From a virus: DNA of 64,000 nucleotides. The stretch lies in UHGV virus genome UHGV-0332176. The stretch is one strand, 5' to 3'. The notes beneath the pieces were generated by a model, which was not told the origin of the DNA, ran no database searches, and saw only the letters and a list, made by a program, of their open reading frames with translations. The position numbers and the translations under genes were made by a program. This document shows positions 3,203 to 61,400 of the stretch, one piece after another (within the stretch, counting starts at the first letter, position 1; each line of letters begins with the position of its first letter).

Positions 3203-3289
3203 TGGAAGTCTGGACGAGATTCGAACTCGCATCATCTTTTCAGATATACGGTTTTGCAGACCGCTGTATAGCCATTCTACCACCAGACT
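3203..3289 (-). tRNA. tRNA with anticodon GCA (Cys) and U73 discriminator but type-II architecture (17-nt variable arm), CCA encoded
   Basis: RC: AGTCTGG/CCAGACT acceptor, GG in D-loop, anticodon stem-loop GCGGT-CTGCAAA-ACCGT, variable arm ATATCTGAAAAGATGAT, T-arm GCGAG-TTCGAAT-CTCGT, then U-CCA. Confidence 0.6.
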
Positions 3290-3296
3290 TATAAAA

Positions 3297-3371
3297 TGGT
3301 ACGGTAAGTGAGAATCGAACTCACATATTCAGCTTGGAAGGCTGACGTAATAGCCATTATACCATTACCGC
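3297..3371 (-). tRNA. tRNA-Gly (anticodon TCC)
   Basis: RC: GCGGTAA...TTACCGT acceptor (G1-U72 wobble), anticodon stem-loop TCAGC-CTTCCAA-GCTGA, T-arm GTGAG-TTCGATT-CTCAC, ACCA end. Confidence 0.75.
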
Positions 3372-3376
3372 ATTAA

Positions 3377-3451
3377 TGGAGCGACTTGCGAGAATCGAAC
3401 TCACATCTAAACCTTGGCAAGGTCTTGTATTAACCATTATACGAAAGTCGC
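3377..3451 (-). tRNA. tRNA-Gly (anticodon GCC)
   Basis: RC: perfect acceptor GCGACTT/AAGTCGC, D-stem GTAT/ATAC, anticodon stem-loop AGACC-TTGCCAA-GGTTT, T-loop TTCGATT, U73-CCA. Confidence 0.75.
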
Positions 3452-3457
3452 AAATAT

Positions 3458-3531
3458 TGGCAGGAGCATAGGGATTTGAACCCCAACAGACAGTTTTGGA
3501 GACTGTAATGCTACCGTTACATCATACTCCT
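3458..3531 (-). tRNA. tRNA-Trp (anticodon CCA)
   Basis: RC: AGGAGTA/TGCTCCT acceptor, U8, D-stem ATGT/GCAT, anticodon stem-loop ACAGT-CTCCAAA-ACTGT, T-loop TTCAAAT, G73-CCA. Confidence 0.75.
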
Positions 3532-3541
3532 TTAATAATTT

Positions 3542-3549
3542 TATTTATT
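3542..3549 (-). promoter_or_regulatory. Late-type promoter core AATAAATA (minus strand), 10 nt upstream of the tRNA-Trp 5' end; same spacing and flanks as the tRNA-Leu promoter
   Basis: Plus tatttatt; conserved 20-nt context tttaataattttatttat shared with 901-918. Confidence 0.4.
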
Positions 3550-3561
3550 ATAATAATATTT

Positions 3562-4098
3562 TTATTTAATAATATCAATATATTTTTTATTAATTTCTTT
3601 AACAAGCCAAACGTTATTATCAGAAATATAAAATTCAATACCATCAGCTAACATTTGTTTAGCATCAATAGATAAAATAATTGTTTTACCTTTTCTTCTA
3701 TCACCAACTTTTTTAGCTGTTTCAATATCATTTGATAAATGAACATATTGCCTTTTCATAGGTAATAATCCTTTTTTCATAATTGAAGGAATATTACTTT
3801 CTTGTGTTCCGTGATATAAAATAATTGGTGGGATAGATTTCTTAAAATGTATATCTACATCTTTTGTTGTATGTCCTTGATTAGCTCTAATTTTTGTACC
3901 ATCTTCTGATATAGAAAATCGTTTCTTATCATTTGTATCAACAATTTCTTTAATTATATCATAAGATAATTTCATTTCAGAATTATCAATAATATATTGT
4001 ATATCTCCCCATCCTTCTTTATCTAATTTCAATTTAATAATTTCTGGTTTATGGCGTAGAATATAACTCAAATACTTACTAATTTCTATATTATTCAT
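3562..4098 (-). CDS. kptA: RNA 2'-phosphotransferase Tpt1/KptA
   Basis: Near-colinear match to E. coli KptA: SKYLSYILRHKPE, DKKRFS, IRANQGHTT, LYHGT, YVHLS, TAKKVG.RR.G, NNVWL. Confidence 0.9.
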   Translation of the reverse strand: MNNIEISKYLSYILRHKPEIIKLKLDKEGWGDIQYIIDNSEMKLSYDIIKEIVDTNDKKRFSISEDGTKIRANQGHTTKDVDIHFKKSIPPIILYHGTQESNIPSIMKKGLLPMKRQYVHLSNDIETAKKVGDRRKGKTIILSIDAKQMLADGIEFYISDNNVWLVKEINKKYIDIIK

Positions 4099-6063: not shown

Positions 6064-6147
6064 TTTAATTTCCTTTCATTAAAAATATCATCATTTGATA
6101 TTGGTACTATAACATACAAAAATAACTTGTCAAGAACTTTTTTTAAT

Positions 6148-6681
6148 TTATTTTATATTTAATTTTTCTTTTATTTCTTCCCACGACCAAGGTTCATAAT
6201 TATGTGTATCAACCCCAATATCCATACAATTGATATTTTGATGTGGCATTAATTTCGTAAAATCAGCTAAATTAAATTTTCCGTGAGTATGACCATACAA
6301 ATGAATTGACCCGTGCCAAGCACAATCCCATTCTGCTATTGGATAATGAGATAATATAATTCTATTGTCATCAATAATAATTCGTTTATATGGAACAATT
6401 TCTGCCCATACATTTGATAATTGATGTGGTATAAGTTTATCGTGATTACCAATTATTAAATATTTAATACCATTCATTTTAGAAAATGTTTGTTGGATTT
6501 TATCAGAATTCCAACCCCAACAAACGTCTCCTAAAACATATATAATATCATTTACACCAACTTTTTTATTCCAACGCTTAATAATTTCTTCATTCATTTG
6601 CTGAACAGATGCAAATGGTCTATTTGAATGTCGTATACTATTTGTATGGTCTAAATGTAAATCACTTGTAAAAAATATCAT
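6148..6681 (-). CDS. Calcineurin-like metallophosphoesterase (binuclear-metal phosphatase); candidate RNA end-healing phosphatase
   Basis: Motifs SDLHLDH, GDVCWGW, GNHD, GHTHG. Start chosen at MIFFTSDLH (ATG 6681), giving a TAAAATG stop/start junction with the upstream gene; the ORF-track start at 6744 would overlap that gene by 62 nt. Confidence 0.8.
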   Translation of the reverse strand: MIFFTSDLHLDHTNSIRHSNRPFASVQQMNEEIIKRWNKKVGVNDIIYVLGDVCWGWNSDKIQQTFSKMNGIKYLIIGNHDKLIPHQLSNVWAEIVPYKRIIIDDNRIILSHYPIAEWDCAWHGSIHLYGHTHGKFNLADFTKLMPHQNINCMDIGVDTHNYEPWSWEEIKEKLNIK

Positions 6682-6682
6682 T

Positions 6683-7492
6683 TTATTCATCACCATACAT
6701 AATTGGTTCAGCATCATAAAAATAAGTTTCAACCTTATTTTCAACTTTTTTCATAATTGGTAATTGTAATTCTTGAACTTCACTACGCATTACCATATTA
6801 TTTTCAGGTCTTTTATCAGTAGGTATTTTAGATAATGTTTCTTCATCAAGAACTTTCATTACATTAACTCTTTTGAAATAAGACCCTCTTTTAAGAAATG
6901 GTTTAATATCATTAAAATTAATACCTTTTTCTTGAAATAGCATTTCATTCATTTCTGCTGTTGATTTACCTTGTAATTCTTTATGACTAAAATTTGCTTG
7001 TGCAACCATACTAACAGCATTTCGTGCAGCATCATTTTCTCGCCATACAAAAGCATTAGCTAATTCTATCATATTTGGTAATTGAAAGACACGACAATCA
7101 AAATTTGGTTTAAGATTTTCAACTTTTTCTTTTAATTTCGGATATTTCATACAATTTAAAACAAAAGATACAGTTGCCATTGATGCAAGAACAGATGTTA
7201 ATTTAAATAATCTTCCATCAAACGGTGCTTTACTCATATCTTCCCAAGCTAATGAAATTTCATCTGACTGAACATATCCAAGTTTTGCATTTGTCTGTTT
7301 TACTAAATCTTGACAAACCTCTCTCATAACTGCAACAAATTCCATATCAAATGGTTTATCTAATCCACGACAAAAAGTATGAAAAGCACGACCATCTAAT
7401 CTAACATATACAGGTAATCTTGGCATTAACATTGTTGATGTTGTTAATGCTTCATAAGTTTTCATACGGTCTCCCAAATTATCATTTATCAT
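6683..7492 (-). CDS. Thg1-like protein (tRNA-His guanylyltransferase family, 3'-5' nucleotidyltransferase)
   Basis: PVYVRLDGRAFHTF (Thg1 RxDGRxFHxF motif), VQSDEISLAW (GQSDEYSF), RLFKLTSVLASMATVSFV. Start placed at internal ATG 7492 (RBS AAGGA); 7465 (RBS GGGAGA) is also possible. The 7594 start in the ORF track would overlap the upstream gene by 100 nt. Confidence 0.8.
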   Translation of the reverse strand: MINDNLGDRMKTYEALTTSTMLMPRLPVYVRLDGRAFHTFCRGLDKPFDMEFVAVMREVCQDLVKQTNAKLGYVQSDEISLAWEDMSKAPFDGRLFKLTSVLASMATVSFVLNCMKYPKLKEKVENLKPNFDCRVFQLPNMIELANAFVWRENDAARNAVSMVAQANFSHKELQGKSTAEMNEMLFQEKGINFNDIKPFLKRGSYFKRVNVMKVLDEETLSKIPTDKRPENNMVMRSEVQELQLPIMKKVENKVETYFYDAEPIMYGDE

Positions 7493-7493
7493 T

Positions 7494-7844
7494 TTAATAT
7501 CCTTTAAATTTACTACAAAAACAAATCCGTTTTTTTCTTCTTTTTTCTCTTTTAAACATTGCAAAATCAATTCTTTTACAAATTGTATTTTCAAATATGT
7601 AATTTTCTAATTCAGTTAAAAAACTGTTATATAAATCATAATTCCAAATTTTACCTTTATATGGTTTTATCATATTTTTAATATGTGCCATTTGTTCTAC
7701 AGAAAAGTAATTTAGTCTAATATATAAACAAGTATTTTTCCATATTCTTAAAGATAAACAAGGTATATTATATGGAAACATTGTATTTGTTAATTTATTA
7801 ATATACCTATCACAAACAAAATTAACTTTTTTCTTATTTCTCAA
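7494..7844 (-). CDS. Hypothetical protein
   Basis: ORF immediately upstream of the Thg1-like gene; several possible internal starts. Confidence 0.4.
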   Translation of the reverse strand: MRNKKKVNFVCDRYINKLTNTMFPYNIPCLSLRIWKNTCLYIRLNYFSVEQMAHIKNMIKPYKGKIWNYDLYNSFLTELENYIFENTICKRIDFAMFKREKRRKKRICFCSKFKGY

Positions 7845-8572: not shown

Positions 8573-8600
8573 AATATAACATAGAAGAATTATTTGTCAA
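8573..8600 (-). promoter_or_regulatory. Sigma70-like promoter TTGACA-N16-TATATT (minus strand)
   Basis: Plus-strand tgtcaa at 8595-8600 and aatata at 8573-8578; one of many recurrent ATTTGTCAA (minus-strand TTGACAAAT) sites. Confidence 0.45.
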
Positions 8601-8612
8601 TAGAAAAAAATA

Positions 8613-8643
8613 AAAAATCCAAGAATTTTTCTTGGATTTTTAT
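8613..8643. terminator. Rho-independent terminator hairpin (aaaaatccaagaa/ttcttggattttt)
   Basis: Perfect inverted repeat flanked by A/T runs, downstream of the 8660..8959 gene. Confidence 0.6.
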
Positions 8644-8971: not shown

Positions 8972-11900
8972 TTATTCAATAATAATATTATTTTTTCCAC
9001 GTAAATAATCAATAGTTATCAAAATTGTTCCTGCTGTTGAAACTTGAATAACAGGTAAAGAACCTGCGTCATTTCCAACAGGAATAAATTTTGTAATTAA
9101 CTGCATATTTTCATCTAACAATTCCAAATATAATGTATAATCTGAAAAATTATATTCTAATGTATAATCAGAATCATCATCAATAATTTCAAAAGTTGTT
9201 GGGTCAACTTTCTGTAAATCTCTTTCAAAATTAAATACATATTCAAAACCTGTTTCAGGAATTACCATCCAATATGAAGGATTAAATAATTCGTGAGCAT
9301 CATTTGAAGTATGTGCTTGTTTACATTGATAATATCTATCTTGATAAGCAACTTTATCATCAACTTGATATTGAGTTGCTGTTACCCAATTTTGATAATA
9401 ACTTGAATTAATATCACGTTTAGTAACGTCTAATATATTTCTATTAAATAATAGGCGAGCTGAATCTTCATTATTACTTGCTACAATAGAAATATATTTA
9501 ATATCTTTTAAATCAACCGTTAAACCAGTATCTGAATCTTTACCTTGTTTATAAACATCTTCCCACATAGAAATTTTACCAGTACGTCCTGCATCTTCAT
9601 CAAATGATGTTGATGAAGTATGTGCTTGACTACACATATAATAATATGTTGATGTTACTCCATCATATTCTTCATCGTGTTTTATAATATCACCAACTGC
9701 ATAATATAAATTTGGTTCCCAAGTTAAAGTATTTTCATTAATTTTATTAACTATTGAATAAAATGGTCGTCTAATATTAAATGATAATTGTTTTAAATTT
9801 ACGAAATCTCCATAAATTCCTTTATCAAAAAAGATAATAGGGATTCTTGTTTTCATAATTGTTTGAATAGCTTGATAATCAATACCAACACGATTTTCTG
9901 TTGATGCTAATTTATTAACATATTCAACGTTTGGAATAGCATCATTATCTGAAGCAATTCTTTCGGCATATGATAAATTAGTGTGTGTAGAATCATCAAT
10001 AACTAAATAATTATCACGAGTTGTTTGAAATGTGATTTTTTGACCACTTTCATAGCTACGAATAACATTACCATTTAAGTCCAGAGCTTTATTTAATAAA
10101 ACAGATGGAGTATAATAATTTACTAATTGCCAATATTCAGCATTATTTGTGGTAATATCAGTTGATGAAGTGTGTTCTTTTAAACAAATATAAATATTAT
10201 AACCAATTTCAAAAGGTATTTGAACATAATCATTAACATTATATGTTACACCAACTTCCCAAGTTGAATAAGATGCATTATTTCCACCAAGTTCTAAATG
10301 TCCATAAAAACCAGAACCTAATTCAACATCTCCTGTTAAATTTGTACCACTTATTGTAACTTTATTATTATTAGAAGCATCTCCTTGTTCAATTGTAATA
10401 CCATTAGTTAATGGACGAACAACTTCTTTTCCATCAATAATTTCAGTATTATATAATCCTTTAACTAAATCATCCCCATTTGGAGTAGCTAAATAATCTA
10501 AAAATACCCATTTTGGTTGATAAAAATCAAATTGATAGATTCTTTTGGAACTCATTTCAGGGTCTAATGTGTCAATATTATTTAATGTTGAATTATTTGT
10601 AAAACGAGTAGCAATTGTATTACTTTCTGTAACGTTTTTATCAAATAAAGAATTAATAAATGTTAAATATTCAGTTCTTTCGCTTAAAGTAATAATAGAT
10701 TTTCCTAATGAACAATTACTAAATCTATTTCCAATAAATGAACCATTTGAAGTTTTATTATTTTCATTATAAGAAGTTATATTAATTGCTTGATTTGTAA
10801 TATCTTTAAATAAGCAATTATTAAATAAAAACCAACTTAAATTATTTGAAATATTTACACCATTTCTAGCATTTTCAAAAATGCAATTAAAGAAATGTAC
10901 ATAAGAAGAATCTTGTAAACCTTGTGATTTAAAAATATTAACTAATGTTGAACCATTACCATTTTGTATATCAGAATAACCAATGAATTTAACATTTCTA
11001 AACCAAACATCATATGTTGAACCTAACAATAAAACAGTTTCTAATGTACTTTCAGACACATCAAAAGTCATATCTTCAACAATAATATTGTGTGCAATTT
11101 CTCCATTAACACCATATTTGTTTGTTGATGATAAATCACTTAAAACATAATTACTATCTAATGTTGTTAATAAAACATTCAAACCATTTTCATAACTATT
11201 TGTTTTAATAATAGTTCTATCAATTCCTTCACCTTTTAAATGAATACCAGTTGGTAATGCTAATGGTTTAGAATTAATAATATATTCACCAGCAGGAACT
11301 AACATTGTTTTGAAGCAATCAGGTTTATTATCTGCACAATAAACAGTTAATATAGCATTATAAAAAGCATCTGAATCATCAGTTGTTCCATCGCCCAATA
11401 CACCAAAATTTTTAACTGAACAATAATCATCTAAAACTTCTTGAATTGTTCTATCAGAAGGTGGTGTAGCATTTTCTGTATAACTTGGTTCAGTTGTAAT
11501 ACCAATAATATCAAGAATTCCACCTTGTTCTTGACCTTCACCATTTTCTAAAACAAGTGTTTCTCCATTGCTAATAATTTGAATTTTTCCACCTTCAACA
11601 ACTTGTGCTTTAACACCTAAATTTAAAGAATTTATTTTATCACAAAATCCTTGAGCATCTGTTTCTTTATCAAATGTAATTGTTTGACCATTTATAACAA
11701 TTGTTGTTCCAGCTGGAATAGATGGATACAATTTGGAACCTGTTACAATTATAGGTAATTTACTACCATTACCATTTGAATAAACATATTTAATCATATC
11801 CAAATTATCACTAAATTCAGTTAAAACCTGAATATTACCATATGGAAATGTATTAGATTGAATTCTTTCTTTTAATTTTGGATTATTTGGATTACCAATA

Positions 11901-12118: not shown

Positions 12119-12715
12119 TTAAGTTAAATCAATCCCTAATTCTTTGGCTTTATTTAGTAATTGAACTCTATTATAACATTTCATTCTTTTTAAAATATTT
12201 GTTATATGAACTTTAACAGTAGATTCTGAAATATTCAATTCATATGCTATCTGTTTATTAGATAAACCTTTATTGATTAATTTAATAACATCAATCTGCT
12301 TATTTGTTACAATTTTCTTAAATGAATTAATTACTAAATTATTTGGAAAGTATGTTTCATTTAATAAAATCAAATTAATAATGTTAAAAATTTTATCATT
12401 GGAATACTTTTTAGAAATATATCCAGCAACATTATATCTCATATAATTAACTATATCAGTTGAAATATATTCTGATGTTAAAATAATTAATTTACCATTT
12501 AAATTTTGTTTTTGAAAAAATGATAAAATAGTTAAAATATCAATTTTTGGAGTTTTTGTAATAAAAATCAAATCATATTGGTTAGATAGAATATTATTTT
12601 TGATATTATTATAATCACAGCAAGCATTAATTTCACAATTTTCATCAATATGTGTTAATAATTCTTTTAATCCTGTAATATACAGTTCTTCATCATCTAT
12701 TATAAGTATTTTCAT
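12119..12715 (-). CDS. LuxR/FixJ-family transcriptional regulator with degenerate receiver domain (pseudo-response regulator)
   Basis: C-terminal HTH LSNKQIAYELNISESTVKVHITNILKRMK closely matches NarL/LuxR. N-terminal receiver-like MKILIIDDEE, but the phospho-acceptor position reads DLIFITK (Thr where Asp is expected). Confidence 0.8.
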   Translation of the reverse strand: MKILIIDDEELYITGLKELLTHIDENCEINACCDYNNIKNNILSNQYDLIFITKTPKIDILTILSFFQKQNLNGKLIILTSEYISTDIVNYMRYNVAGYISKKYSNDKIFNIINLILLNETYFPNNLVINSFKKIVTNKQIDVIKLINKGLSNKQIAYELNISESTVKVHITNILKRMKCYNRVQLLNKAKELGIDLT

Positions 12716-13412: not shown

Positions 13413-13677
13413 TGCATTATCAAAAGCTAATATTGACCAAGGATTTTTAGAAAAAATTAAAGGATACTTAAATAATCCAATGTATAGTTTTTTATTACCT
13501 ATGATTGGAATTGATAAAAAAGTTGCTTTACAAAAAATAGATTCATTAGAACAAATGTTAAATAATCAAACTAATAATCCTATGACATTGCCTAATGAAT
13601 CTCAACAATCATCACTCCCAATGAGTCAGAATGATGATTTAGAAAGATTTAGAAAAGGTCTAAATTCTTTCAAATAG
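13285..13677 (+). CDS. Hypothetical protein (N/Q-rich); start uncertain (ATG 13282/13285 after RBS AAAGGTGA)
   Basis: ORF in the +1 frame relative to the upstream ORF, overlapping it by ~130 nt. Confidence 0.45.
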   Translation: MNVNQIANMLAQKFNLNPNQQTNLTQSIEKARTLLNSVNNPTDALSKANIDQGFLEKIKGYLNNPMYSFLLPMIGIDKKVALQKIDSLEQMLNNQTNNPMTLPNESQQSSLPMSQNDDLERFRKGLNSFK

Positions 13678-18169: not shown

Positions 18170-19807
18170 TTACATATTAGGTGTATTTTGTCTTATTGCT
18201 GACATTAACTTTAAATTAGTTTCAGTATCATCAATAATTAATCCTTCAACCGTTAATAATGAACCTGCAATTGAAGACCCATTTTCCAAAGCACAACGAA
18301 CAACTTTGGTTGCATCTAAAATACCTGCATCAACTAAATTACAGAATTTATCGCATTTAGCATCATATCCCCAAGAATAATCATCATTATCTAATACTTT
18401 TTCAACAATGACTTCACCAGATTTTCCAGCATTTTCTGCAATTTTTTTCATTGGAGCACTTAAAGATTTTAATACAATTTCATATCCAACATTTTCATCA
18501 TCTGTTATAACAATATTATTTAATTCCTTAATAAGGTCTTTTTGTGCTCTTACTAATGATACTCCACCACCAGGTAAAATACCTTCTTCTAATGCTGCTC
18601 TCGTTGCACAAACGGCATCATCAACACGGTCTTTCTTTTCTTTAACTTCTGTTTCAGTTGCTCCACCAACTTTAATAACAGCAACACCGCCAATTAATTT
18701 AGCAAGTCTTTCACGAAGTTTTTCTTTATCATATGATGAATCAGTATTTTCAATTTCTTCAGAAATTTGTTTTGCTCTTTCATCAATAGCTTCTTTACTT
18801 CCGTGTCCACCAATAATAATTGTTTCAGTTGGTGTAATTCTAATTTTATCGCAAGAACCCAAATCATCAATAGTTACTTTTTCTAATTGAGCACCAAATT
18901 GAGTTGAAATAAAATTACCACCTGTTAAAATTGCAATATCTTCCATTTGAAATCTACGAATATCACCAAATGAAGGAGCTTTAACAGCACAAACTTTTAA
19001 TCCTGCTTTAATTCTATTAATAACCAATGCTGATAATGGGTCATCTGCCATTTCATCGGCAATCATAATTAATGGACGACCAATTTCCATAACATTTTCT
19101 AACAAAGGAATAATAGATTGAAGATTGTTAATTTTACCATCATATAAGAAAATATATGGATTATCATACTCAACTAATTGTCTTTCTGGATTAGTCATAA
19201 AATATGGTGAAAGATAACCTTGGTCAAATTGTAAACCATCAACAATTTCTAATTCTGTCTTTAATCCCTTTGCTTCTTCAACAGTAACTACACCTTTTTC
19301 ACCAACAACTTCAATTGCTTTAGCAATAAAATCACCAATTTCTGTATCACCATTTGCAGAAATAGTTGCCAATTGACGAATTTCTTCATTTGTTGTTACT
19401 TTTTTTGAATGTGATTTTAATGATTCAACTACAACCTTAACTGCATTTGAAATACCTTTTTGAATTTCAGTAGATTTACGACCTTTAGAAATTGACTTTA
19501 AACCTTCTTCAGCAATTGTAGATGCAATTATACAAGTTGCTGTTGTACCATCACCTGCATCTCTACCAGTTTTTTCAGATGCTTGAATAATCATTTTTGC
19601 ACCTTCACCTTCAGAGTCCATTAGTGTAACAGATTTTGCAACAGTTACACCATCTTTTGTAACTTTTGGTGAACCCCAAGATTGTTGAATAGCAATTGTT
19701 CTACCAGCAGGACCAGCAGTAGCAGAAACAACATCTGCAACTGTTTTCATACCAGAATATAACGTACTACGAGCTTCATCACCTTTAATTACTTTTTTAA
19801 TTGTCAT
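18170..19807 (-). CDS. groEL: Chaperonin GroEL (Cpn60) homologue, no C-terminal GGM repeats
   Basis: 545 aa. N-terminus MTIKKVIKGDEAR; AVKAPSFGDIRRFQMEDIAILTGG; GGGVSLVRA. Ends ...RQNTPNM. RBS AAGGAGA. Confidence 0.93.
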   Translation of the reverse strand: MTIKKVIKGDEARSTLYSGMKTVADVVSATAGPAGRTIAIQQSWGSPKVTKDGVTVAKSVTLMDSEGEGAKMIIQASEKTGRDAGDGTTATCIIASTIAEEGLKSISKGRKSTEIQKGISNAVKVVVESLKSHSKKVTTNEEIRQLATISANGDTEIGDFIAKAIEVVGEKGVVTVEEAKGLKTELEIVDGLQFDQGYLSPYFMTNPERQLVEYDNPYIFLYDGKINNLQSIIPLLENVMEIGRPLIMIADEMADDPLSALVINRIKAGLKVCAVKAPSFGDIRRFQMEDIAILTGGNFISTQFGAQLEKVTIDDLGSCDKIRITPTETIIIGGHGSKEAIDERAKQISEEIENTDSSYDKEKLRERLAKLIGGVAVIKVGGATETEVKEKKDRVDDAVCATRAALEEGILPGGGVSLVRAQKDLIKELNNIVITDDENVGYEIVLKSLSAPMKKIAENAGKSGEVIVEKVLDNDDYSWGYDAKCDKFCNLVDAGILDATKVVRCALENGSSIAGSLLTVEGLIIDDTETNLKLMSAIRQNTPNM

Positions 19808-19879
19808 AATTATTTTTTCTCCTTAACTTAAATTTATTTTTAATAATAACAAAAATTTTATAATTTTACAAAAATAATT

Positions 19880-20182
19880 TTAATGTATAATACCTAAAAT
19901 ATCTGTTTCTCTTAAAATTGTTTTTTCTTCATCGTTTAATTTAATAATTTGACCTGCAAATTTTCCAAATAAAACTCTATCTCCAACTTTAACTGTCATT
20001 GGTTGAATTTTTCCTGTTTCTTCATTATATAAACCATTTCCACACGCAATTACAACACCTGTTGATGGTTTTTCTTTTGCATTATCAGGAATAATAATTC
20101 CGCCGTTAGAAACACTTTTTTCTTCATCTTTTTCAATAACAACGAAATTAAATAAAGGTTGAATTTCTAATTTTTTTTCCAT
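19880..20182 (-). CDS. groES: Co-chaperonin GroES (Cpn10) homologue
   Basis: LEIQPLFNFVVIEK...GGIIIPDNAKEKPSTGVVIACGNG...VGDRVLFGKFAG...ILGI. Start placed at the second ATG (20182), which has RBS GGAG; the ATG at 20194 abuts the terminator U-tract. Confidence 0.88.
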   Translation of the reverse strand: MEKKLEIQPLFNFVVIEKDEEKSVSNGGIIIPDNAKEKPSTGVVIACGNGLYNEETGKIQPMTVKVGDRVLFGKFAGQIIKLNDEEKTILRETDILGIIH

Positions 20183-20198
20183 TTTTTTCTCCATAAAA

Positions 20199-37493: not shown

Positions 37494-37934
37494 ATGATGG
37501 ATTTTTCTGAAATTAAACATAAAATTTTAACTGATGACAAGATTGCATCAGCTTTTGAATATATGCTTTCTAAAATGGTTTTTGAAAACCCAATAAAACC
37601 TTTAAAATTCATATATAAAAAATGTAAAATTGTAACTGAAAGAAATAATTTATATTCAATTTATGATACAAAAACAGGAATTAAATTATATAGTAAAATT
37701 CACTTTCAAGAAGTAGCTAAATATATCGTTGATAATTTAAAAAGTTATGGTAAAGTATCATATATAATATTTTTAGAAAATGAATTATTTAGATATAAAG
37801 AAAAAATTGATTTTTTTAAAAATTATTATTTACAAAAAAAGACAGATATTTTAGAAATTAAATTATCTGCAATGTATGATTCATATTATAAAATAAAAAA
37901 TAGTTTATTAAATACTCTTAAAGAGAATACTTAA
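37494..37934 (+). CDS. Hypothetical protein (146 aa)
   Basis: Intact ORF; 3' end overlaps the convergent greA-like gene by 17 nt. Confidence 0.45.
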   Translation: MMDFSEIKHKILTDDKIASAFEYMLSKMVFENPIKPLKFIYKKCKIVTERNNLYSIYDTKTGIKLYSKIHFQEVAKYIVDNLKSYGKVSYIIFLENELFRYKEKIDFFKNYYLQKKTDILEIKLSAMYDSYYKIKNSLLNTLKENT

Positions 37935-38397
37935 TATCAACTATCTCATATTCAGTATCATTATATTCAAAATAATCATTAAATGTTAATCCAAGCATTT
38001 CTTTAACAAATGGAGCTTGAATAGATATTAATCCATTATTTATATCTGTTTCATACGTACTAACAATTGTATATGTTTTATTTACATTTGTCTCTGTATT
38101 AACAAAAGTAACTGTTGCCCCAAAACCAACTTTGTAATCTCCATAACTATTGTAACTAATCATTGATTTATCCCATAAAACACAATCACTTAAAATTAAT
38201 TGTAAATCATTAATTTTTCTTTCAATGCGGTCTTGGCATTCAATAGCTTGCAAATATTCAGGTGGAAATTCATCAGATACCCCTATTGGTCGTGTTTCTT
38301 CCAATAATTGATATGCTTGTGGACGTTCAACACGAATTAATTCATTTAATTCATTATTTAATTTATCAAATCCTTTTTTCGTTATAATTGTTTTCAT
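37918..38397 (-). CDS. Transcript cleavage factor GreA/GreB-family homologue
   Basis: Colinear with E. coli GreA: ITKKGFDKLNNELNEL..RP (TLRGAEKLREELDFL..RP), EYLQAIECQDRIERKINDL, GATVTFVN...TYTIVS, EYEIVDIKY. Confidence 0.7.
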   Translation of the reverse strand: MKTIITKKGFDKLNNELNELIRVERPQAYQLLEETRPIGVSDEFPPEYLQAIECQDRIERKINDLQLILSDCVLWDKSMISYNSYGDYKVGFGATVTFVNTETNVNKTYTIVSTYETDINNGLISIQAPFVKEMLGLTFNDYFEYNDTEYEIVDIKYSL

Positions 38398-55423: not shown

Positions 55424-55449
55424 AAAAAAGGAGTTTAAACTCCTTTTTT
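55424..55449. terminator. Terminator palindrome aaaaaaggagttt/aaactcctttttt downstream of the giant ORF
   Basis: Perfect 13-bp palindrome. Confidence 0.65.
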
Positions 55450-58400
55450 ATTGTTCAAAATATTCTAATATTTTTTGAATAACAATTGCACTTTCAGTAT
55501 TCAAATAATCATATTTTGTTTGATTACCAATGAAAATTGAATCATCTCTTAAATCATATTCACCATTCCAGAAATTTAATGTTACATTAAATCCTTCAGC
55601 AACTGTAATTTTACTTCCACTTGGAACAGTTGATTTAGTAAATGGTAATTCATTACTTAAATATTCAAGAGTATCATTGCTTCCTGTTTTTAATCCTAAC
55701 ACAATAGCAGGAGTTGAAACACCAGAAACTAATGAAAATGTAATAGGATATTGATTAAATCCTTCTCCTGAAATATCAGGAATATAAATTTTAACGTTAT
55801 TAGCAAAACTATTTTTCATATAAGATGCATCTAAAACGCCATCTTTTGTAATATTAATACCCATATAATCATAACTATTCCATAAATCATCAGTAACTAT
55901 AAAATCAGATGTTCTTGGTTTTTCATCTCTATACCAATTAGGAACATTATTTTTTAATTCGGCATCTTCCATATAAGTATATAAAGATTCAGATACATTA
56001 ATTGTACCATCCTGCAAACCAACTGTATGGAAAATTGGTGAATTTCCTTGCATACCTTCATATTGTTTTAATATCCATTTACCATCAGAATATATTTTAA
56101 CAATATCTCCTGATTCAAAATGATATTCTTCAAAATGTTCTTGTAAATCTATTTCTGATTCAAATGTTGCTCTTGGAGTTATCATTGGAATTGAATCGTC
56201 AGCATATAAATCTTTATATGTCCAATATTTTGAAACGTCATATGTTTGATATTTTATTAACGTATAATCATTTAAATTATCCATTCTCCATAATGTCCAA
56301 ATATTATCATAAACTTCATCAGTTTTTACTAAAATATTTTTTCCAATTAATGCAGTATCTTCACTTGAAATCATCTCTAAATGAGTATCAAATGAAAAAT
56401 CATATTCTGGATATGGTTCTTTACTTAAAAAGATATTATTAAATTCTGTTGAACCAACATCAATATCAGATAAGACATCACGAGTATTAAAAATATGATT
56501 TAAAATATCAACTAAATTTTGTCTTGCTCTAACAATATTTTCAAACATTGTTTGTCTTGGTCTAATATATATACCAATTTTATTTCTTGGTAATAATTCT
56601 GGGTCAGGAACAGTTTGTCCTAAACTATCATATCCAACTAAACTTGCTTTCATTTTATCCCATAATGAATCAGGAATTTCAGCATCAGTATTTTCTTTAA
56701 CTAATACCCATTCTTCGTGTTCAGTTACATCATTATCACCTAAGAAATTTAATTGAATAACAAAATCTCTACCTGCATTTAATGTATCAAAATTACCAAC
56801 AATCATTGAACTATATTGAGTTTCTCCATCATATGCATATATTGGAGAATACCAAATAACTCCTTCATCTTGTGGTGAATTAATTATTTGTGAAATATAT
56901 AATGCACTTGTATGTCTAAATGAAACATTTGGTATACTTGATGGATTCTTTACCCAATAATAGTAATAAATTTCATTCTTTTCAGTAGCTTTATTATAAA
57001 TTTCTTTTTTAACATAAGAAGTTACTGTTTGTGGAAGATTAATTGATTTAGTCCATTCCATAATAGCTATTTCTGAACCAGGCATTTGTTTACCCCAATT
57101 ATTTCTTCTATAAGTAATATCTCCTTGTGAATAATCTAAATATTTAACTTTTGAAATATCCCACCATAATTGACCAACTTTATTATCTCCCCAAGTTGAA
57201 TAATTATTATAATCAGCAGGGTCTTGGGCAATTATATAATTTACTTCTTTTAATAAATTATTTGGAATAATACCTTGAATTGGGTCAAATGGTTGAATAA
57301 TTGCCATTGTTTTATTATTATCATCGTTTACCATATAACAAGATTTAATTTCTTTAATATTAATTTTTCTATTTTGTAAACGATATAATGAATAAGTTTT
57401 ATCAATAGTTGGTTTATAATCTATATCTGTTTCTATTTCATTATAAACTTCACCTTGTTGTTCATCAATAAATTTAAAAACTGACCACGCCATTTTATCA
57501 ATAATATTTTGTGAATCATTGATTAAATAAGAAGGGTCATATATTTTCTTTAAATTATCAACATTATTAATAACATCTCTTAAAACATAAATTAAATCAC
57601 CAATCTCTAAATGAGTTTTATCAAAAGAATATACATCAGAAATTTTATTAACAACCATTGAAATATAATCATCATCAGATATTTTCTTTCTAATATCCCA
57701 ACCTTGATTTGTTTCAGCAAAAGATACCCAAACTTTTTCTCCAACTTTCATATTTTCAAAAGTTGTCTTAAAAGTTGCTTCATTATCTACTATATAATTT
57801 GTTTCTCCAATTTGTGCAAATCCTGCTGTTGGATAAAATTTAAAATCATTTGTGAAATTAAATTTATTTTCAGATTTATTCTCTTTTTGCTTTAACCAAT
57901 CTTGATTATTCCAAGTAATATCAACAATTGAACTATTAGCTTTAACATTATCAGCAGTTGTAAATGAAATAATTTGAGGGTCTTGAGTAATTAAATCTGG
58001 TTGAATTTTTAATTCAATTACTGAACTATTTGATGTATATCCAAATTCTCCAATTTTAAATGCCCAGTTTTCAAATAATTCTATTTCATTATTTTCAGCA
58101 TCCATAATATAAGTTGAACGATTTAATTTACCAAATGAACGTTTTGTTCCTTTTTCTTTTAGTAATCCTTTATAGAAATCAAATATATTTCTATCATCAA
58201 TTAAAAGTCTTTCCATAGATGGTAATTTTTGAAAACCTATTGTTCTTTTAGCATAATCACCAAATACACCTTGTGAACGTACATCATCTGTATTATAAAA
58301 ATATTTAAAATCATTAGCTAATTTATCGTAGTTTGGATATGCTCCATCTTTATCAATTAAATAACCTGGTGCAAAATAAGTTCCATTCCATCCATCAACT

Positions 58401-61400
58401 TTAATTCCTAAAAGTTTTAATCTTTGAGCTTTAATACAAAGTAGTGGGTCATAAATAACATCACCATAAATTGTTTGATTATCAAATAAAATGATATGTT
58501 CATTTTCAATTTCTTTAATTTTTAAACAAGTAACGGCTTTATCTAATGACATTATATAAGTATCGCCATCTTTACGATATACATCTAAATCCTCGTTAAA
58601 AATTGGTAATGATGCAGTATTTAAAATTGACCAATAACCATTTATATATTGTCCAACTTTATCAATAAATGCATCGTGAAAAATACCAATACCATCAGCA
58701 CCAGGATTTAACATAATAATAGAATCAATATCAATTTGAGTTGTTGTCCACAATAAGAAATCTCTTGATTTACTTCTAAAATTAATAATTTCTCCATTTG
58801 CATCTAATATATTAAAATACCAACCTTCAACATCCTCTAAATATTTTCCATACCCATTAATAACATTATAAACATCTTGAATTGAAGAATATACTGTTTT
58901 ATAATTTACTTTTTGAAGATTATCTGTCCATTCATTATAATAAATAATATTTCTTCCTGAAATATTAACAGTTGACTTTTTACCATTATATTGAGGAACT
59001 TTAACTATAAAATATGGTTTTTCATAATCAAATCCATCAATCATATATCCTGATTCAACTTTTTGAATAACAATAGCTGAATAAGAATATTGTTTATCAG
59101 TAATAGTTTTATATAAATCTAATTCATAATTTTGTGATGGAATTACTCCAAAATTATCAGATAATATTTTAATACTATCATACTTATAAAAGCCTGCACA
59201 TTTATATGATAATTTCATAGAAATATCACGAATAGATTTAGCAATATAATTTGTTATATCAACATTTTCGTGTAATAAAAAGTCTGAAATCCATTGTTGA
59301 ATACCTATTTTTTGAACATATTCATTATCAATATACTCATTATGCATAATTATATCAGAAGGTGAAGGACGTTTACCTAAATCATCATAAATAATTTGTT
59401 CATATGAAGTATCTTTAAAAATTGTTTTAATATTTTTAGTATCCCAATTATTTTCAACCCATTCTGTTGGTCTCATCATATATAAAATTGTTTGTATTGA
59501 ATATCTATATTCAGATGTATACATCCAAGCGAATTCCCAACGACCTATATCACCAACTTTCCAAGATTGTTTAGCATAATATGGAATTGGTGCATTTAAA
59601 ACAATACCAATTTCAACTGGATTTAATAATTCACCATTTTCATTAACTGGTAAATACTTTTCAATTAAATTTGGACGTTTTAAAAATTCATATATACCTT
59701 TTGATTCACCATCAGCAACATATCCATTTTCAATATCTTGCCACATAGGTAAATTTGAAGATGTATAAGGAGCAGAACCATAATGGTCTTCCCACCAAGA
59801 TGGTTGTGAACCAAAACCTAACATTTCCCAAGGATGTGTATGTGGTCTATAAGTATCATAATAATATATATAAATTGATTTATATGAACCATATAATTGT
59901 TCACCATCCGCATCTACACAAGTTGAATAATTCCAACTAAATGGGTCATTTTGGTCAAAACCATCATTAATAGTGTAGTCAACTCCTTTATCTTGACACC
60001 ATTTTTCAAAAATTGGAGTTAAAAATTCTTTATATTCAACTTGATTATAATCTGTTGTTCTAAATTTTCCTGGTATATATTCCAATTTATTATATGAAGG
60101 CAAACTATTTTTAAACTTATCTAAAATAGAATTGTAAATTGCTGTTTCAATTTCTATTAAAGCATTATCACGATAATCATTAAATAACATTTGATATGAA
60201 CCATCGTGGCATAATAATACTTTTGGTTTATTAGGATTTTCTTCAAATGTAATAATTTGTGGTTTATAATAAGAATCTAAACCTAAATATGCAGGAGTTG
60301 CTGGAATATAACAATCTCCATATTCAGATGCAACTCCATTATTATAAAATGAATCTAATCCTTCCTTACCTAGATTAATTTTATTTAATGCACTTTGAAC
60401 AATTTTTTTAACATCCGTTTCTTGAGTTACGTGTGAAATTGAACCACTTGGACTTACAATATCAACTGTTTCAAATTCATCATATTCACCATTATTACTC
60501 ATTGTTGTAATAATATTTTTAAATTTAGTTTTAAATTTAGTATATTCATTAGTTATATATGTTAAAACAGTTCTAATATTAGAAAATTCTCTTGAATTTA
60601 ATAACATTGTTTTAAGTGCTGGACTTTCGTGTTGTAAAATTTCTGTACCTAATGATAAATCTTTTTTTGTATTATTATAATTATTATTTCCTGAAGAATT
60701 ACCACTAAATGCACTTTGGTTTTCAATGATACTTCTTAATTGGTCAAAACATTCATTATAATTAATTTGTGAAATATCTTCATTCATCGCATTTGATGTT
60801 ATTGTTAAAGGCAAATCATAAAAATAACCATCAGCAATTGTATTAGTTAATTTTTTAACTAATAATTTAATATATAAATTATCATCTGCATTTAAAATAC
60901 TTGTTTCAGAAATCATAAGTTTTTTATTTTTGATAATATAATCTGTACCATCATTTAATAAAACACCATTTAAATAAACAAAAGATGATTTTTTATTTGA
61001 AACTTCATCTGGCTGATATGCTAAATTAAATACAGTATATTTAACATCATCAATTATTTCATAAATTTTATTATCTGTAACAGTTATTTCAGTTGTAATA
61101 TATTGTGTTGTTGTATCTTTAGATATATACCAGTTATTTAAATATATATCTTGACCATTTAATTTAAAAAATTTAAAACCTTCATAATCTTTTAATATTG
61201 TATAATCATAATATGTAAAAGTTTGAGTTCTAATTATATTATCAAAAATGTAATTTCCATAGCCATCAGTAACAATTGCTTTATTTAAATCTTCATCAAT
61301 TGTTGCACCAGAATCATCAGTTGTAACATAATCAAATAATTTACTACCTTTAAATGATGATTGATTGTAATATAATTGATTATCTAATGCATTTTTTTCA

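Follow-up and report, generated by a model that had tools for sequence, protein, structure and literature searches.

Known Systems

Among the described systems closest to the locus considered here is BtTLP of Bacillus thuringiensis (PDB 4KGK/4KGM), the best solved relative of its Thg1-like protein (TLP). Enzymes of the BtTLP type prefer 5'-truncated tRNAs of many kinds, and residues R28, D30, D75, E76, K99, and R131 of BtTLP have been described (PMC3701042). Phages carry TLPs as well. A 2010 analysis that took in gp319 of phage 201phi2-1 predicted a role in tRNA repair from gene neighbourhoods (PMC2904730), and in 2021 an RNA-repair role was proposed for the TLPs of jumbo phages, in a paper that also notes calcineurin-like phosphatases in jumbo-phage RNA repair (PMC7824862). 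No biochemical study of a phage TLP was found in the literature searched. Such work on any of these enzymes would probe a long-standing prediction of phage tRNA 5'-end repair, and the locus described below offers no special advantage for it.

An earlier sequence-only reading of this DNA called Thg1-like enzymes rare in phages. That is true only in part. They are uncommon, occurring in 164 of 50,697 phage records, but most of these are from jumbo phages, where annotation of the gene is routine (PHROG 4717). A metagenome protein collection contains 7,804 or more homologues at E<=1e-10. Jumbo phages from metagenomes carry TLPs in abundance, and genes for RNA ligase, kinase, Tpt1, and tRNAs are often close by. 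The TLP described here thus joins an already annotated family, for which a tRNA-repair role had been proposed before.

Damaged tRNA ends are also restored by T4 Pnkp with Rnl1 and by bacterial Pnkp (kinase, calcineurin-like phosphatase, and ligase), a theme they would share with the phage TLP. Unlike these systems, the TLP would mend 5' ends through polymerisation and not ligation. Another difference is that neither an RNA ligase nor a polynucleotide kinase gene turned up in the window (the whole stretch of DNA analysed, positions 1-64,000) plus ~3 kb of a genome of >200 kb.

The Phage and Its Thg1-Like Gene

The window comes from UHGV-0332176, a T4-like gut myovirus of roughly 200-290 kb. Its major capsid protein is 53% identical to that of the 121Q/PBECO4 jumbo phages, and its TLP shares 39-46% identity over 88-99% of the length with PHROG 4717 proteins of jumbo phages (201phi2-1 gp319, GAP32, CBB_152, CcrColossus, and Bc431v3 gp143). 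The local order in phage CBB (structural protein, TLP, N4/N6 methyltransferase) is similar to that found here. Unlike those isolates, this phage belongs to an uncultivated human-gut lineage, and the genes that flank its TLP are different; a nucleotide search of the region against an isolate phage collection gave no match. Three adjoining genes are central to what follows:

7494..7844, minus strand: 116-aa ORF with a TTG start, upstream of the TLP gene; a single base separates its TAA stop from the TLP ATG
6683..7492, minus strand: Thg1-like protein (TLP) gene, 269 aa, beginning MINDNLGDRMK at ATG 7492, as placed by alignment, stop codons in a relative, and an SD-like site
6148..6681, minus strand: calcineurin-like metallophosphoesterase (PE) gene, 177 aa, beginning MIFFTSDLH at ATG 6681; aq_1665 / PHROG 547 family

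The TLP carries both motifs by which the sequence-only reading had recognised it, RLDGRAFHTF at residues 31-40 (7373..7402) and QSDE at residues 75-78 (7259..7270), with the catalytic residues R31/D33 within RLDG and D77/E78 within QSDE. It scores far above the cutoff for Pfam Thg1 (PF04446; 3.3e-31, 108.4 bits, cutoff 29.2) and also passes that for Thg1C over residues 167-244 (2.8e-7, 31.2 bits, cutoff 26.3), and PHROG 4717, named "tRNA-His guanylyltransferase," matches at 4.6e-82. The match to BtTLP (4KGK) reaches E=5e-41 over residues 4-204, compared to 4e-18 and 1.1e-14 for the eukaryotic Thg1 structures 3WBZ and 3OTB. Residues R31, D33, D77, E78, K97, and R134 align to the metal-binding and triphosphate-binding residues of BtTLP named above and are invariant across 24 homologues. 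Like BtTLP, the protein lacks the eukaryotic anticodon-recognition segment; where 3WBZ has HINNLYN, the alignment shows DAARNAV and then a gap. Unlike BtTLP, it is virus-encoded, and it has a conserved C-terminal stretch of ~65 aa (205-269) outside the 4KGK alignment, part of it covered by Thg1C. On these grounds it is classed as a genuine Thg1-family 3'-5' nucleotidyltransferase of the bacterial TLP type, with predicted activity.

The longest reading frame of the gene is a 303-aa ORF with a TTG start (6683..7594, minus strand). It overlaps the upstream ORF, as had been remarked, and the overlap counts to 101 nt. Two in-frame ATGs, at 7492 and 7465, lie inside it, and the earlier reading had left the choice between them open. 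Alignment, which it had proposed for fixing the starts, settles on 7492 as the start. In the 24 sequences a D-x-LG-x-R-x-K motif near the N-terminus is invariant, with homologues beginning 3-4 aa before it, and a start at 7465 would drop its invariant D, L, G, and R. The SD-like AAAGGA lies 7 nt upstream of ATG 7492. The 34-aa extension of the 303-aa form has no counterpart in 23 homologues, and in the related locus L009 the corresponding ATG is preceded by stop codons at distances of 1 and 5 codons. Gene calls in 374 blocks of the metagenome collection give exactly this 269-aa product. The annotation is corrected accordingly, from 303 to 269 aa.

The Phosphoesterase Gene

The PE is matched by PHROG 547 (7.8e-44), a family found in 1,526 phage records, and by Aquifex aeolicus aq_1665 (PDB 1XM7), at 8.8e-11 by sequence and, for the predicted structure (pLDDT 96.8), at a Foldseek E of 2.2e-11 and TM of 0.77. 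Pfam Metallophos_2 is sub-threshold (17.4 bits, cutoff 27). With aq_1665 and PHROG 547 the protein shares its N-terminus, its fold, and its metal-binding motifs. On an alpha/beta sandwich fold, the model carries the calcineurin-superfamily motifs D-x-H, G51-D52, G78-N79-H80-D81, H112, and G130-H131-x-H133, and D7, H9, H12, D52, N79, H80, D81, H112, H131, and H133 are invariant in 47 homologues. The PE is classed as a separate accessory gene with an intact predicted two-metal site.

The MIFFTSDLH start favoured earlier is also the one adopted here. Nearly all of the 47 homologues begin 0-2 aa before the MIFF methionine. Longer forms of 189 aa (from automatic callers in the lineage) and 198 aa (the longest ORF) were rejected because 46 homologues and 1XM7 begin at the MIFF position, because a different gene precedes the same start in the related loci L009 and L092, and because the sole SD-like element, GGTGA, serves ATG 6681. 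At 177 aa, the predicted product is shorter than either.

What the PE does is less readily drawn from its relatives. Because no substrate is known for any member of the aq_1665/PHROG 547 family, the likeness does not point to a function for the PE. Beyond 1XM7, the Foldseek matches are of the generic calcineurin fold (YfcE, LpxH, MJ0936, Vps29, and Mre11), and an attempt to assign function from structure was abandoned on that account. No specific sequence or fold likeness to RNA end-healing phosphatases was found by blastp or Foldseek.

Gene Arrangement

The TLP stop passes into the PE start as GAT GAA TAA A ATG, giving the TAAAATG junction that the earlier reading had described, with one base between the genes. 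The same TAAAATG joins the upstream 116-aa ORF, which has no Pfam or PHROG family match, to the TLP. That ORF is called as a gene in L001-L006; in L009 an unrelated 281-aa ORF takes its place. Further signals were found on both sides:

8613..8641, minus strand: terminator-like hairpin, preceding the promoter-like site at 8573..8600
8573..8600, minus strand: promoter-like TTGACA-16-TATATT with TG, from a consensus scan only
6106..6133, minus strand: promoter-like TTGACA-16-TATAGT with TG, immediately past the PE stop; 11/12 consensus matches

A six-gene unit (ORFs of 95, 75, 55, and 116 aa, the TLP, and the PE) may start at 8573..8600, and the site at 6106..6133 would then be the start of the next unit, although the consensus scan finds promoter-like sites in the region at a count not above that of shuffles. 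Of 65 junctions between same-strand genes in the phage, 23 either overlap or are spaced by <=3 nt. Junctions of this kind are usual for the genome, and the reading of TAAAATG as a mark of functional pairing is not supported. The TLP and the PE are probably co-transcribed and translationally coupled, by way of tight gene packing only. In a tightly packed phage genome, operon-like adjacency is no proof of functional coupling without comparative support.

Comparison With Relatives

The relatives do not provide that support. At TLP identities of 95, 89, 75, and 66%, other genes adjoin the TLP. In L009 and L010 (93-95% identical) a 97-aa ORF lies between TLP and PE, and a NUMOD3 ORF interrupts the PE after codon 12; a 149-aa remnant without D7/H9/H12 is left, and the TLP is intact. 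In L091 (89%) a NADAR gene is downstream of the TLP, and no PE occurs within 5 kb of it. In L092 (75%) the PE is 2 kb from the TLP, past an opposite-strand gene. The gene directly upstream of the TLP in L093 (66%) encodes a 738-aa protein with kinase, Metallophos, and RNA_lig_T4_1 domains. More widely, the PE family lies <=8 kb from the TLP in 3 of 80 viral TLP loci and is directly adjacent in 0. Four isolates checked (FADO, D181, CBB, and 201phi2-1) have no PE adjoining the TLP. In CBB, the TLP gene shares 35 nt with CBB_153; the latter was considered as a hidden PE homologue and showed no similarity.

Viewed from the PE side, a TLP lies <=8 kb away in 13 of 80 loci, 10 of these coming from one metagenome in one arrangement with the genes 5-7.6 kb apart. 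The two genes may thus be loosely associated by region in a small number of lineages. Direct adjacency is seen in this sub-lineage only, and the PE is a lineage-specific neighbour of the TLP, not a conserved partner.

RNA-Repair Surroundings

Other genes for RNA metabolism lie 2.6-4 kb downstream of the TLP:

3562..4098, minus strand: Tpt1/KptA RNA 2'-phosphotransferase gene, 178 aa (Pfam PTS_2-RNA, 3e-50)
3203..3531, minus strand: tRNA cluster Trp(CCA), Gly(GCC), Gly(UCC), Cys(GCA) (ARAGORN; Rfam tRNA 54-68 bits)

The Tpt1 gene is ~2 kb downstream of the PE gene and ~2.6 kb from the TLP stop. PHROG 5470 matches its product at 7.1e-63, and NCBIfam NF002014 at 1.3e-67 (227 bits, slightly below the 239-bit cutoff). 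Each of the five tRNAs of the window has an acceptor stem that is paired throughout, with no non-canonical pairs, and an encoded CCA. For this reason the idea that mismatched phage tRNAs undergo 5' editing of the kind known from protist mitochondria was rejected, and no built-in substrate for the TLP is visible in the window.

Among relatives, L093 has a CCA-adding enzyme gene near the TLP, and Vibrio phage D181 has RNA ligase and polynucleotide kinase genes <=3.5 kb from it. As raw counts with no matched control, RNA-ligase-like genes lie <=8 kb from the TLP in 10 of 80 viral loci, Tpt1 in 5 of 80, and tRNA genes in 17 of 60. Repair of tRNA 5' ends is in keeping with the Tpt1 gene and tRNA cluster here and with the Pnkp-like, RNA ligase, and kinase genes of relatives, and an RNA-repair setting for the TLP locus is plausible. 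For the PE the signs are mixed. An RNA-ligase-like gene lies <=8 kb away in 17 of 80 PE loci (again a raw count with no matched control), and in 2 of 3 isolates checked PE-family genes are ~1 kb or less from annotated RNA ligase genes, so the PE may have an RNA-related function of its own. Its commonest neighbours, assigned by eye from sequence, are ThyX-like and uracil-DNA-glycosylase (UDG)-like proteins, which points to nucleotide or DNA metabolism.

What the TLP and the Phosphoesterase May Do

It appears reasonably likely that the TLP is an active tRNA maintenance or repair enzyme of the bacterial type and that the PE is a separate accessory gene beside it. The TLP would activate an RNA 5'-monophosphate using ATP or GTP and then add nucleotides in the 3'-5' direction, copying the acceptor stem's 3' strand, so that 5'-truncated tRNAs would be rebuilt. 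With Tpt1/KptA and the nearby phage tRNA genes, it would most likely form an accessory set for tRNA maintenance and repair, with the job of keeping host or phage tRNAs usable during infection. One could consider instead that the PE heals RNA ends and is translationally coupled to the TLP in a two-enzyme tRNA-end repair module, as the sequence-only reading had suggested from the tight junction. The one-base spacing in one apparent transcription unit, the intact active-site motifs of the PE, and its occurrence near RNA-ligase-like genes and, in some loci, near a TLP are all in keeping with this idea. Also, some RNA-repair enzymes have a calcineurin-like domain for their phosphatase, the 738-aa protein that adjoins the TLP in L093 being an example, and calcineurin-like phosphatases have been noted in jumbo-phage RNA repair (PMC7824862). 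However, blastp detects no likeness between the PE and the Metallophos domain of that Pnkp-like protein (E>=0.24), and its best structural matches (1XM7, YfcE, LpxH, and MJ0936) are not RNA end-healing enzymes. The ThyX-like and UDG-like neighbours, the prevalence of tight junctions, the restriction of the adjacency to one sub-lineage, and the truncated PE beside an intact TLP in the closest relatives all argue against the pairing, and we consider it quite unlikely. Thg1/TLP chemistry itself needs a 5'-monophosphate or 5'-triphosphate and has no phosphatase step. It is very improbable that in this lineage TLP, PE, Tpt1, and the tRNA cluster make up a pathway that repairs tRNA ends without a ligase and counters a host nuclease acting on tRNA acceptor ends; if this were true, the PE would process an RNA end (for example by 5'-triphosphate or cyclic-phosphate trimming) before or after 3'-5' polymerisation.

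The substrate of the TLP can also be viewed differently. Its public annotation and the PHROG 4717 name would make it a tRNA-His guanylyltransferase that adds G-1 to phage or host tRNA-His, a maturation step rather than general repair. Bacterial-type TLPs are able to add G-1 opposite C73 in a templated manner, and in L091 a tRNA-His gene lies 1.2 kb upstream of the TLP. In that tRNA, however, G-1 opposite C73 is already encoded in the genome, the usual bacterial arrangement, and the 64-kb window has no tRNA-His gene. The grouping with BtTLP, the missing HINNLYN segment, and the preference of BtTLP-type enzymes for many 5'-truncated tRNAs likewise make this maturation role unlikely. Another proposal is that the targets of the TLP are not tRNAs: it might, for example, rebuild or extend phage transcripts or small RNAs at their 5' ends, or make 5'-App ends for ligation. 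Generation of 5'-App and repair of small RNAs were raised as possibilities in PMC2904730, 43 of 60 TLP loci are without a tRNA gene within 8 kb, and TROVE/Ro60-like and NADAR proteins are among the TLP neighbours in relatives (L091 and L092). Yet the TLP here is near tRNA genes and Tpt1, and the best substrates of all characterised TLPs are tRNA-like acceptor stems (PMC3701042, PMC4820378), which leaves non-tRNA targets doubtful at best. Repair of truncated tRNAs is therefore the reading preferred for the TLP.

The Split Phosphoesterase Gene

The interrupted PE of L009 was also considered as the product of a group I intron. This was rejected since no Rfam match was obtained and the non-ORF flanks of the NUMOD3 ORF amount to just ~37 and ~35 nt. 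A free-standing homing-endonuclease insertion is the more likely cause. A 150-aa product nearly identical to the 149-aa remnant (P0128) has been recorded in 4 contigs.

The TLP gene and its reading frame

Three tightly packed minus-strand open reading frames (ORFs) lie between 6148 and 7844 of the window:

7494..7844, minus strand: upstream ORF, 116 aa
6683..7594, minus strand: middle ORF in its longest version, TTG start, 303 aa
6148..6681, minus strand: downstream ORF from ATG 6681, 177 aa

The middle ORF codes for the Thg1-like protein (TLP). Its 303-aa form overlaps the upstream ORF by 101 nt, and in-frame ATGs occur at 7492 and 7465; counted from ATG 7492, RLDGRAFHTF occupies residues 31–40 and QSDE residues 75–78. 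In the downstream ORF, which codes for a calcineurin-like phosphoesterase (PE), MIFFTSDLH is encoded from ATG 6681. The TLP–PE junction is TAAAATG, and the same motif joins the 116-aa ORF to ATG 7492. The sequence-only reading of the locus (ORFs, overlap, ATGs, motifs, and TAAAATG) was correct in all its descriptive statements.

Its assignment to the Thg1 family is borne out by matches of the 269-aa product to Pfam Thg1 (3.3e-31; 108 bits, cutoff 29) and PHROG 4717, “tRNA-His guanylyltransferase” (4.6e-82), with Pfam Thg1C matching at 2.8e-7. By far the best match among solved structures is the Bacillus thuringiensis TLP (BtTLP, 4KGK; 5e-41), with eukaryotic Thg1 at 4e-18 to 1e-14 and archaeal TLP at 4e-12. 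Residues R31, D33, D77, E78, K97, and R134 align to R28, D30, D75, E76, K99, and R131 of BtTLP, which bind metal and triphosphate (PMC3701042). In the alignment, unrelated residues and a gap take the place of the HINNLYN segment of Candida Thg1. Based on the best match, the aligned catalytic residues, and the replaced HINNLYN segment, the window protein is a bacterial-type TLP.

The start had been left between 7492 and 7465, and four observations point to 7492. Most of 23 aligned homologues (56–88% identity) start 3–4 residues ahead of an invariant D-x-LG-x-R-x-K, and the 34-residue extension of the 303-aa form has no counterpart among them. In the relative L009 (TLP 95% identical), the equivalent ATG is preceded by stop codons at distances of 1 and 5 codons, which forces its use there. 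AAAGGA stands 7 nt upstream of ATG 7492, and the same element precedes neighbouring genes. A start at 7465 was rejected, as it would cost the protein four invariant residues (D, L, G, and R). In the metagenome collection, gene callers give exactly this 269-aa product in 374 blocks; the contigs are 200–290 kb long and belong to ENA metagenome assemblies, apparently of human gut origin.

Phage TLPs are already known: they have their own PHROG family, and publications of 2010 and 2021 discuss them. Of 50,697 phage records, 164 contain one, and TLPs abound in large phages from metagenomes; the literature searched yielded no paper on the biochemical characterisation of a phage TLP.

The phosphoesterase

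The 177-aa PE matches PHROG 547 (7.8e-44) and Aquifex aq_1665 (PDB 1XM7; 8.8e-11), with Pfam Metallophos_2 below threshold. Nearly all of 46 homologues begin 0–2 residues before MIFFTSDLH, so that the start proposed there, ATG 6681, can be taken as settled by homologue N-termini. The 189-aa version that automatic pipelines call runs 35 nt into the TLP gene and is an over-extension. The residues invariant in the alignment (D7, H9, H12, D52, N79, H80, D81, H112, H131, and H133) include all five calcineurin-like motifs. An AlphaFold model (pLDDT 96.8) has a TM of 0.77 to 1XM7; its other structural matches are generic fold members only (YfcE, LpxH, MJ0936, Vps29, Mre11, and Rv0805). No similarity is detectable between the PE and the Metallophos domain of the Pnkp-like RNA-repair protein of a related phage. 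Some close homologues (P0121 and P0131; 73–91% identical) have about 50 additional C-terminal residues with many cysteine pairs (CDICGKE...C..NC), which may form a zinc ribbon and are absent from the window PE.

Does the pair form a module?

What made the earlier interpretation interesting was a coupled phosphatase–polymerase module, which comparative evidence does not support: the PE is broken in two close relatives, the TLP has other neighbours in three more, few TLP loci have a PE nearby, and tight junctions are common in this phage. In L009 and L010 (TLP 95% and 93% identical), a 97-aa ORF follows the TLP. Their PE gene begins MIWFTSDLHLDH and then meets a stop codon, after which come a homing-endonuclease-like 293-aa ORF bearing a NUMOD3 motif, a hairpin, and the PE remainder with an in-frame TGA. 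Since the longest intact remnant, beginning MNEEIIKRW, is without the first metal-binding motif, the PE appears to be inactivated there, while the TLP and the RNA 2'-phosphotransferase Tpt1 are intact. A near-identical 150-aa protein (P0128) is recorded from four contigs of up to 281 kb.

The NUMOD3 ORF splits the PE after codon 12 (9116..10617 in both contigs) and is bordered by a 12-nt repeat (CATTTAGACCAT). On its 3' side is a degenerate second copy of the PE 5' end (YFFTSDL*LHLDH), part of which is a perfect 9-bp hairpin. Rfam finds no group I intron at the split.

In L091 (TLP 89% identical), a NADAR protein gene lies immediately downstream of the TLP, with no PE within 5 kb. In L092 (75%), the PE (76% identical) is 2 kb away, with four genes between, one of them on the opposite strand. 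In L093 (66%), the gene upstream of the TLP encodes a protein of 738 aa and the downstream one a 186-aa protein with no assigned family. Among 80 viral TLP loci surveyed with 8-kb flanks, the PE family occurs in 3 (L009, L010, and L075, the last at 6 kb), and it is beside the TLP in none of the four annotated isolates FADO, D181, CBB, and 201phi2-1. The TAAAATG junction carries no special meaning, since at 23 of 65 same-strand junctions in the window phage the genes overlap or are at most 3 nt apart. From the PE side, a TLP is within 8 kb in 13 of 80 loci; one of these is the L009 contig, and 10 come from a single metagenome with one shared arrangement (TLP at 5–7.6 kb). Of the rest, L145 and L165 alone seem to be independent. 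In a few lineages the two genes may be loosely associated by region; an operon is excluded.

The TLP-adjacent genes differ at each divergence step in the three relatives, and the TLP seems to lie within an island of accessory genes, related to RNA and ADP-ribose, that turns over fast:

L091 5813..6289 (89%): NADAR-domain protein, directly downstream of TLP
L092 2285..3613 (75%): TROVE/Ro60-like protein, about 1.4 kb upstream of TLP
L093 2706..4922 (66%): the 738-aa protein, a trifunctional kinase–Metallophos–RNA ligase, directly upstream of TLP

Phage context and likely function

The window phage has a T4-type portal, capsid, and prohead protease, along with GroEL/GroES, DnaB, and GreA, and its capsid protein shares 53% identity with the capsid proteins of 121Q/PBECO4 jumbo phages. 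Other jumbo phages, e.g., GAP32 and CBB, already have an annotated TLP. Window genes include:

18170..20194, minus strand: GroEL and GroES homologues
37918..38397, minus strand: GreA/GreB-like factor
12119..12715, minus strand: response-regulator/GerE protein
55448..62809, minus strand: 2,453-aa protein, no Pfam match
3562..4098, minus strand: Tpt1/KptA RNA 2'-phosphotransferase, downstream of the TLP–PE pair
3203..3531, minus strand: cluster of four tRNA genes, downstream of the pair and directly after Tpt1/KptA

The window showed no RNA ligase that could produce a 2'-phosphate junction. Tpt1 is also beside or near the TLP in L018 and L067, two unrelated viral contigs, and L063 has a partial match. 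In L093, a CCA-adding enzyme gene is near the TLP, and in Vibrio phage D181, RNA ligase and polynucleotide kinase genes are. Within 8 kb of viral TLPs, RNA-ligase-like genes occur at 10 of 80 loci, Tpt1 at 5 of 80, and tRNA genes at 17 of 60; these counts, only suggestive and with no matched control, agree with published tRNA-repair predictions. Kinase, Macro, and RNA ligase genes in Thg1 neighbourhoods led to a tRNA-repair proposal in 2010 (PMC2904730), and a survey of 224 jumbo phages names Thg1, a 5'-end restoration enzyme of sporadic occurrence, next to KptA and the occasional calcineurin-like phosphatase (PMC7824862). In vitro, bacterial-type TLPs restore 5'-truncated tRNAs via templated 3'-5' addition (PMC3701042; PMC4820378).

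The window protein is most likely an active TLP that would rebuild tRNA 5' ends during infection. As is established for the family, TLPs work on a 5'-monophosphate or 5'-triphosphate end, and their chemistry is not known to require a phosphatase. The PE is probably an independent accessory enzyme; judged by eye, its family's neighbours across phages are mostly ThyX-like and uracil-DNA-glycosylase-like, with RNA ligases rarer, so it could act in the metabolism of nucleotides or DNA, or in that of RNA ends.

tRNA genes

Built-in 5' editing of the window tRNAs is excluded, because their acceptor stems are fully paired and CCA is encoded. The tRNA-His of a relative encodes G-1 opposite C73, so G-1 addition by the TLP is not obviously required. 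The tRNA-Cys(GCA) (3203..3289, minus strand) has an unusual type-II-like shape (84–87 nt, 14-nt variable arm, U73 discriminator), kept in L001 (14941..15027) and L009 (14254..14340); the unrelated contig L019 has a 90-nt tRNA-Cys (13487..13576) next to a normal 74-nt one. L001 (14005..14694), L003, and L004, otherwise near-identical to the window, contain an additional gene (229 aa) that separates Tpt1 from tRNA-Trp (window counterpart about 3532..3561), the tRNA-Trp being called at 88 nt versus 74 nt. Within 8 kb of their TLP, several unrelated viral contigs have CUA-anticodon tRNAs (amber suppressor-like, called “Pyl”) or tmRNA genes:

L060 9266..9359
L061 16579..16652
L062 4676..4749
L065 9895..9971
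L011 7882..8291
L028 9924..10323
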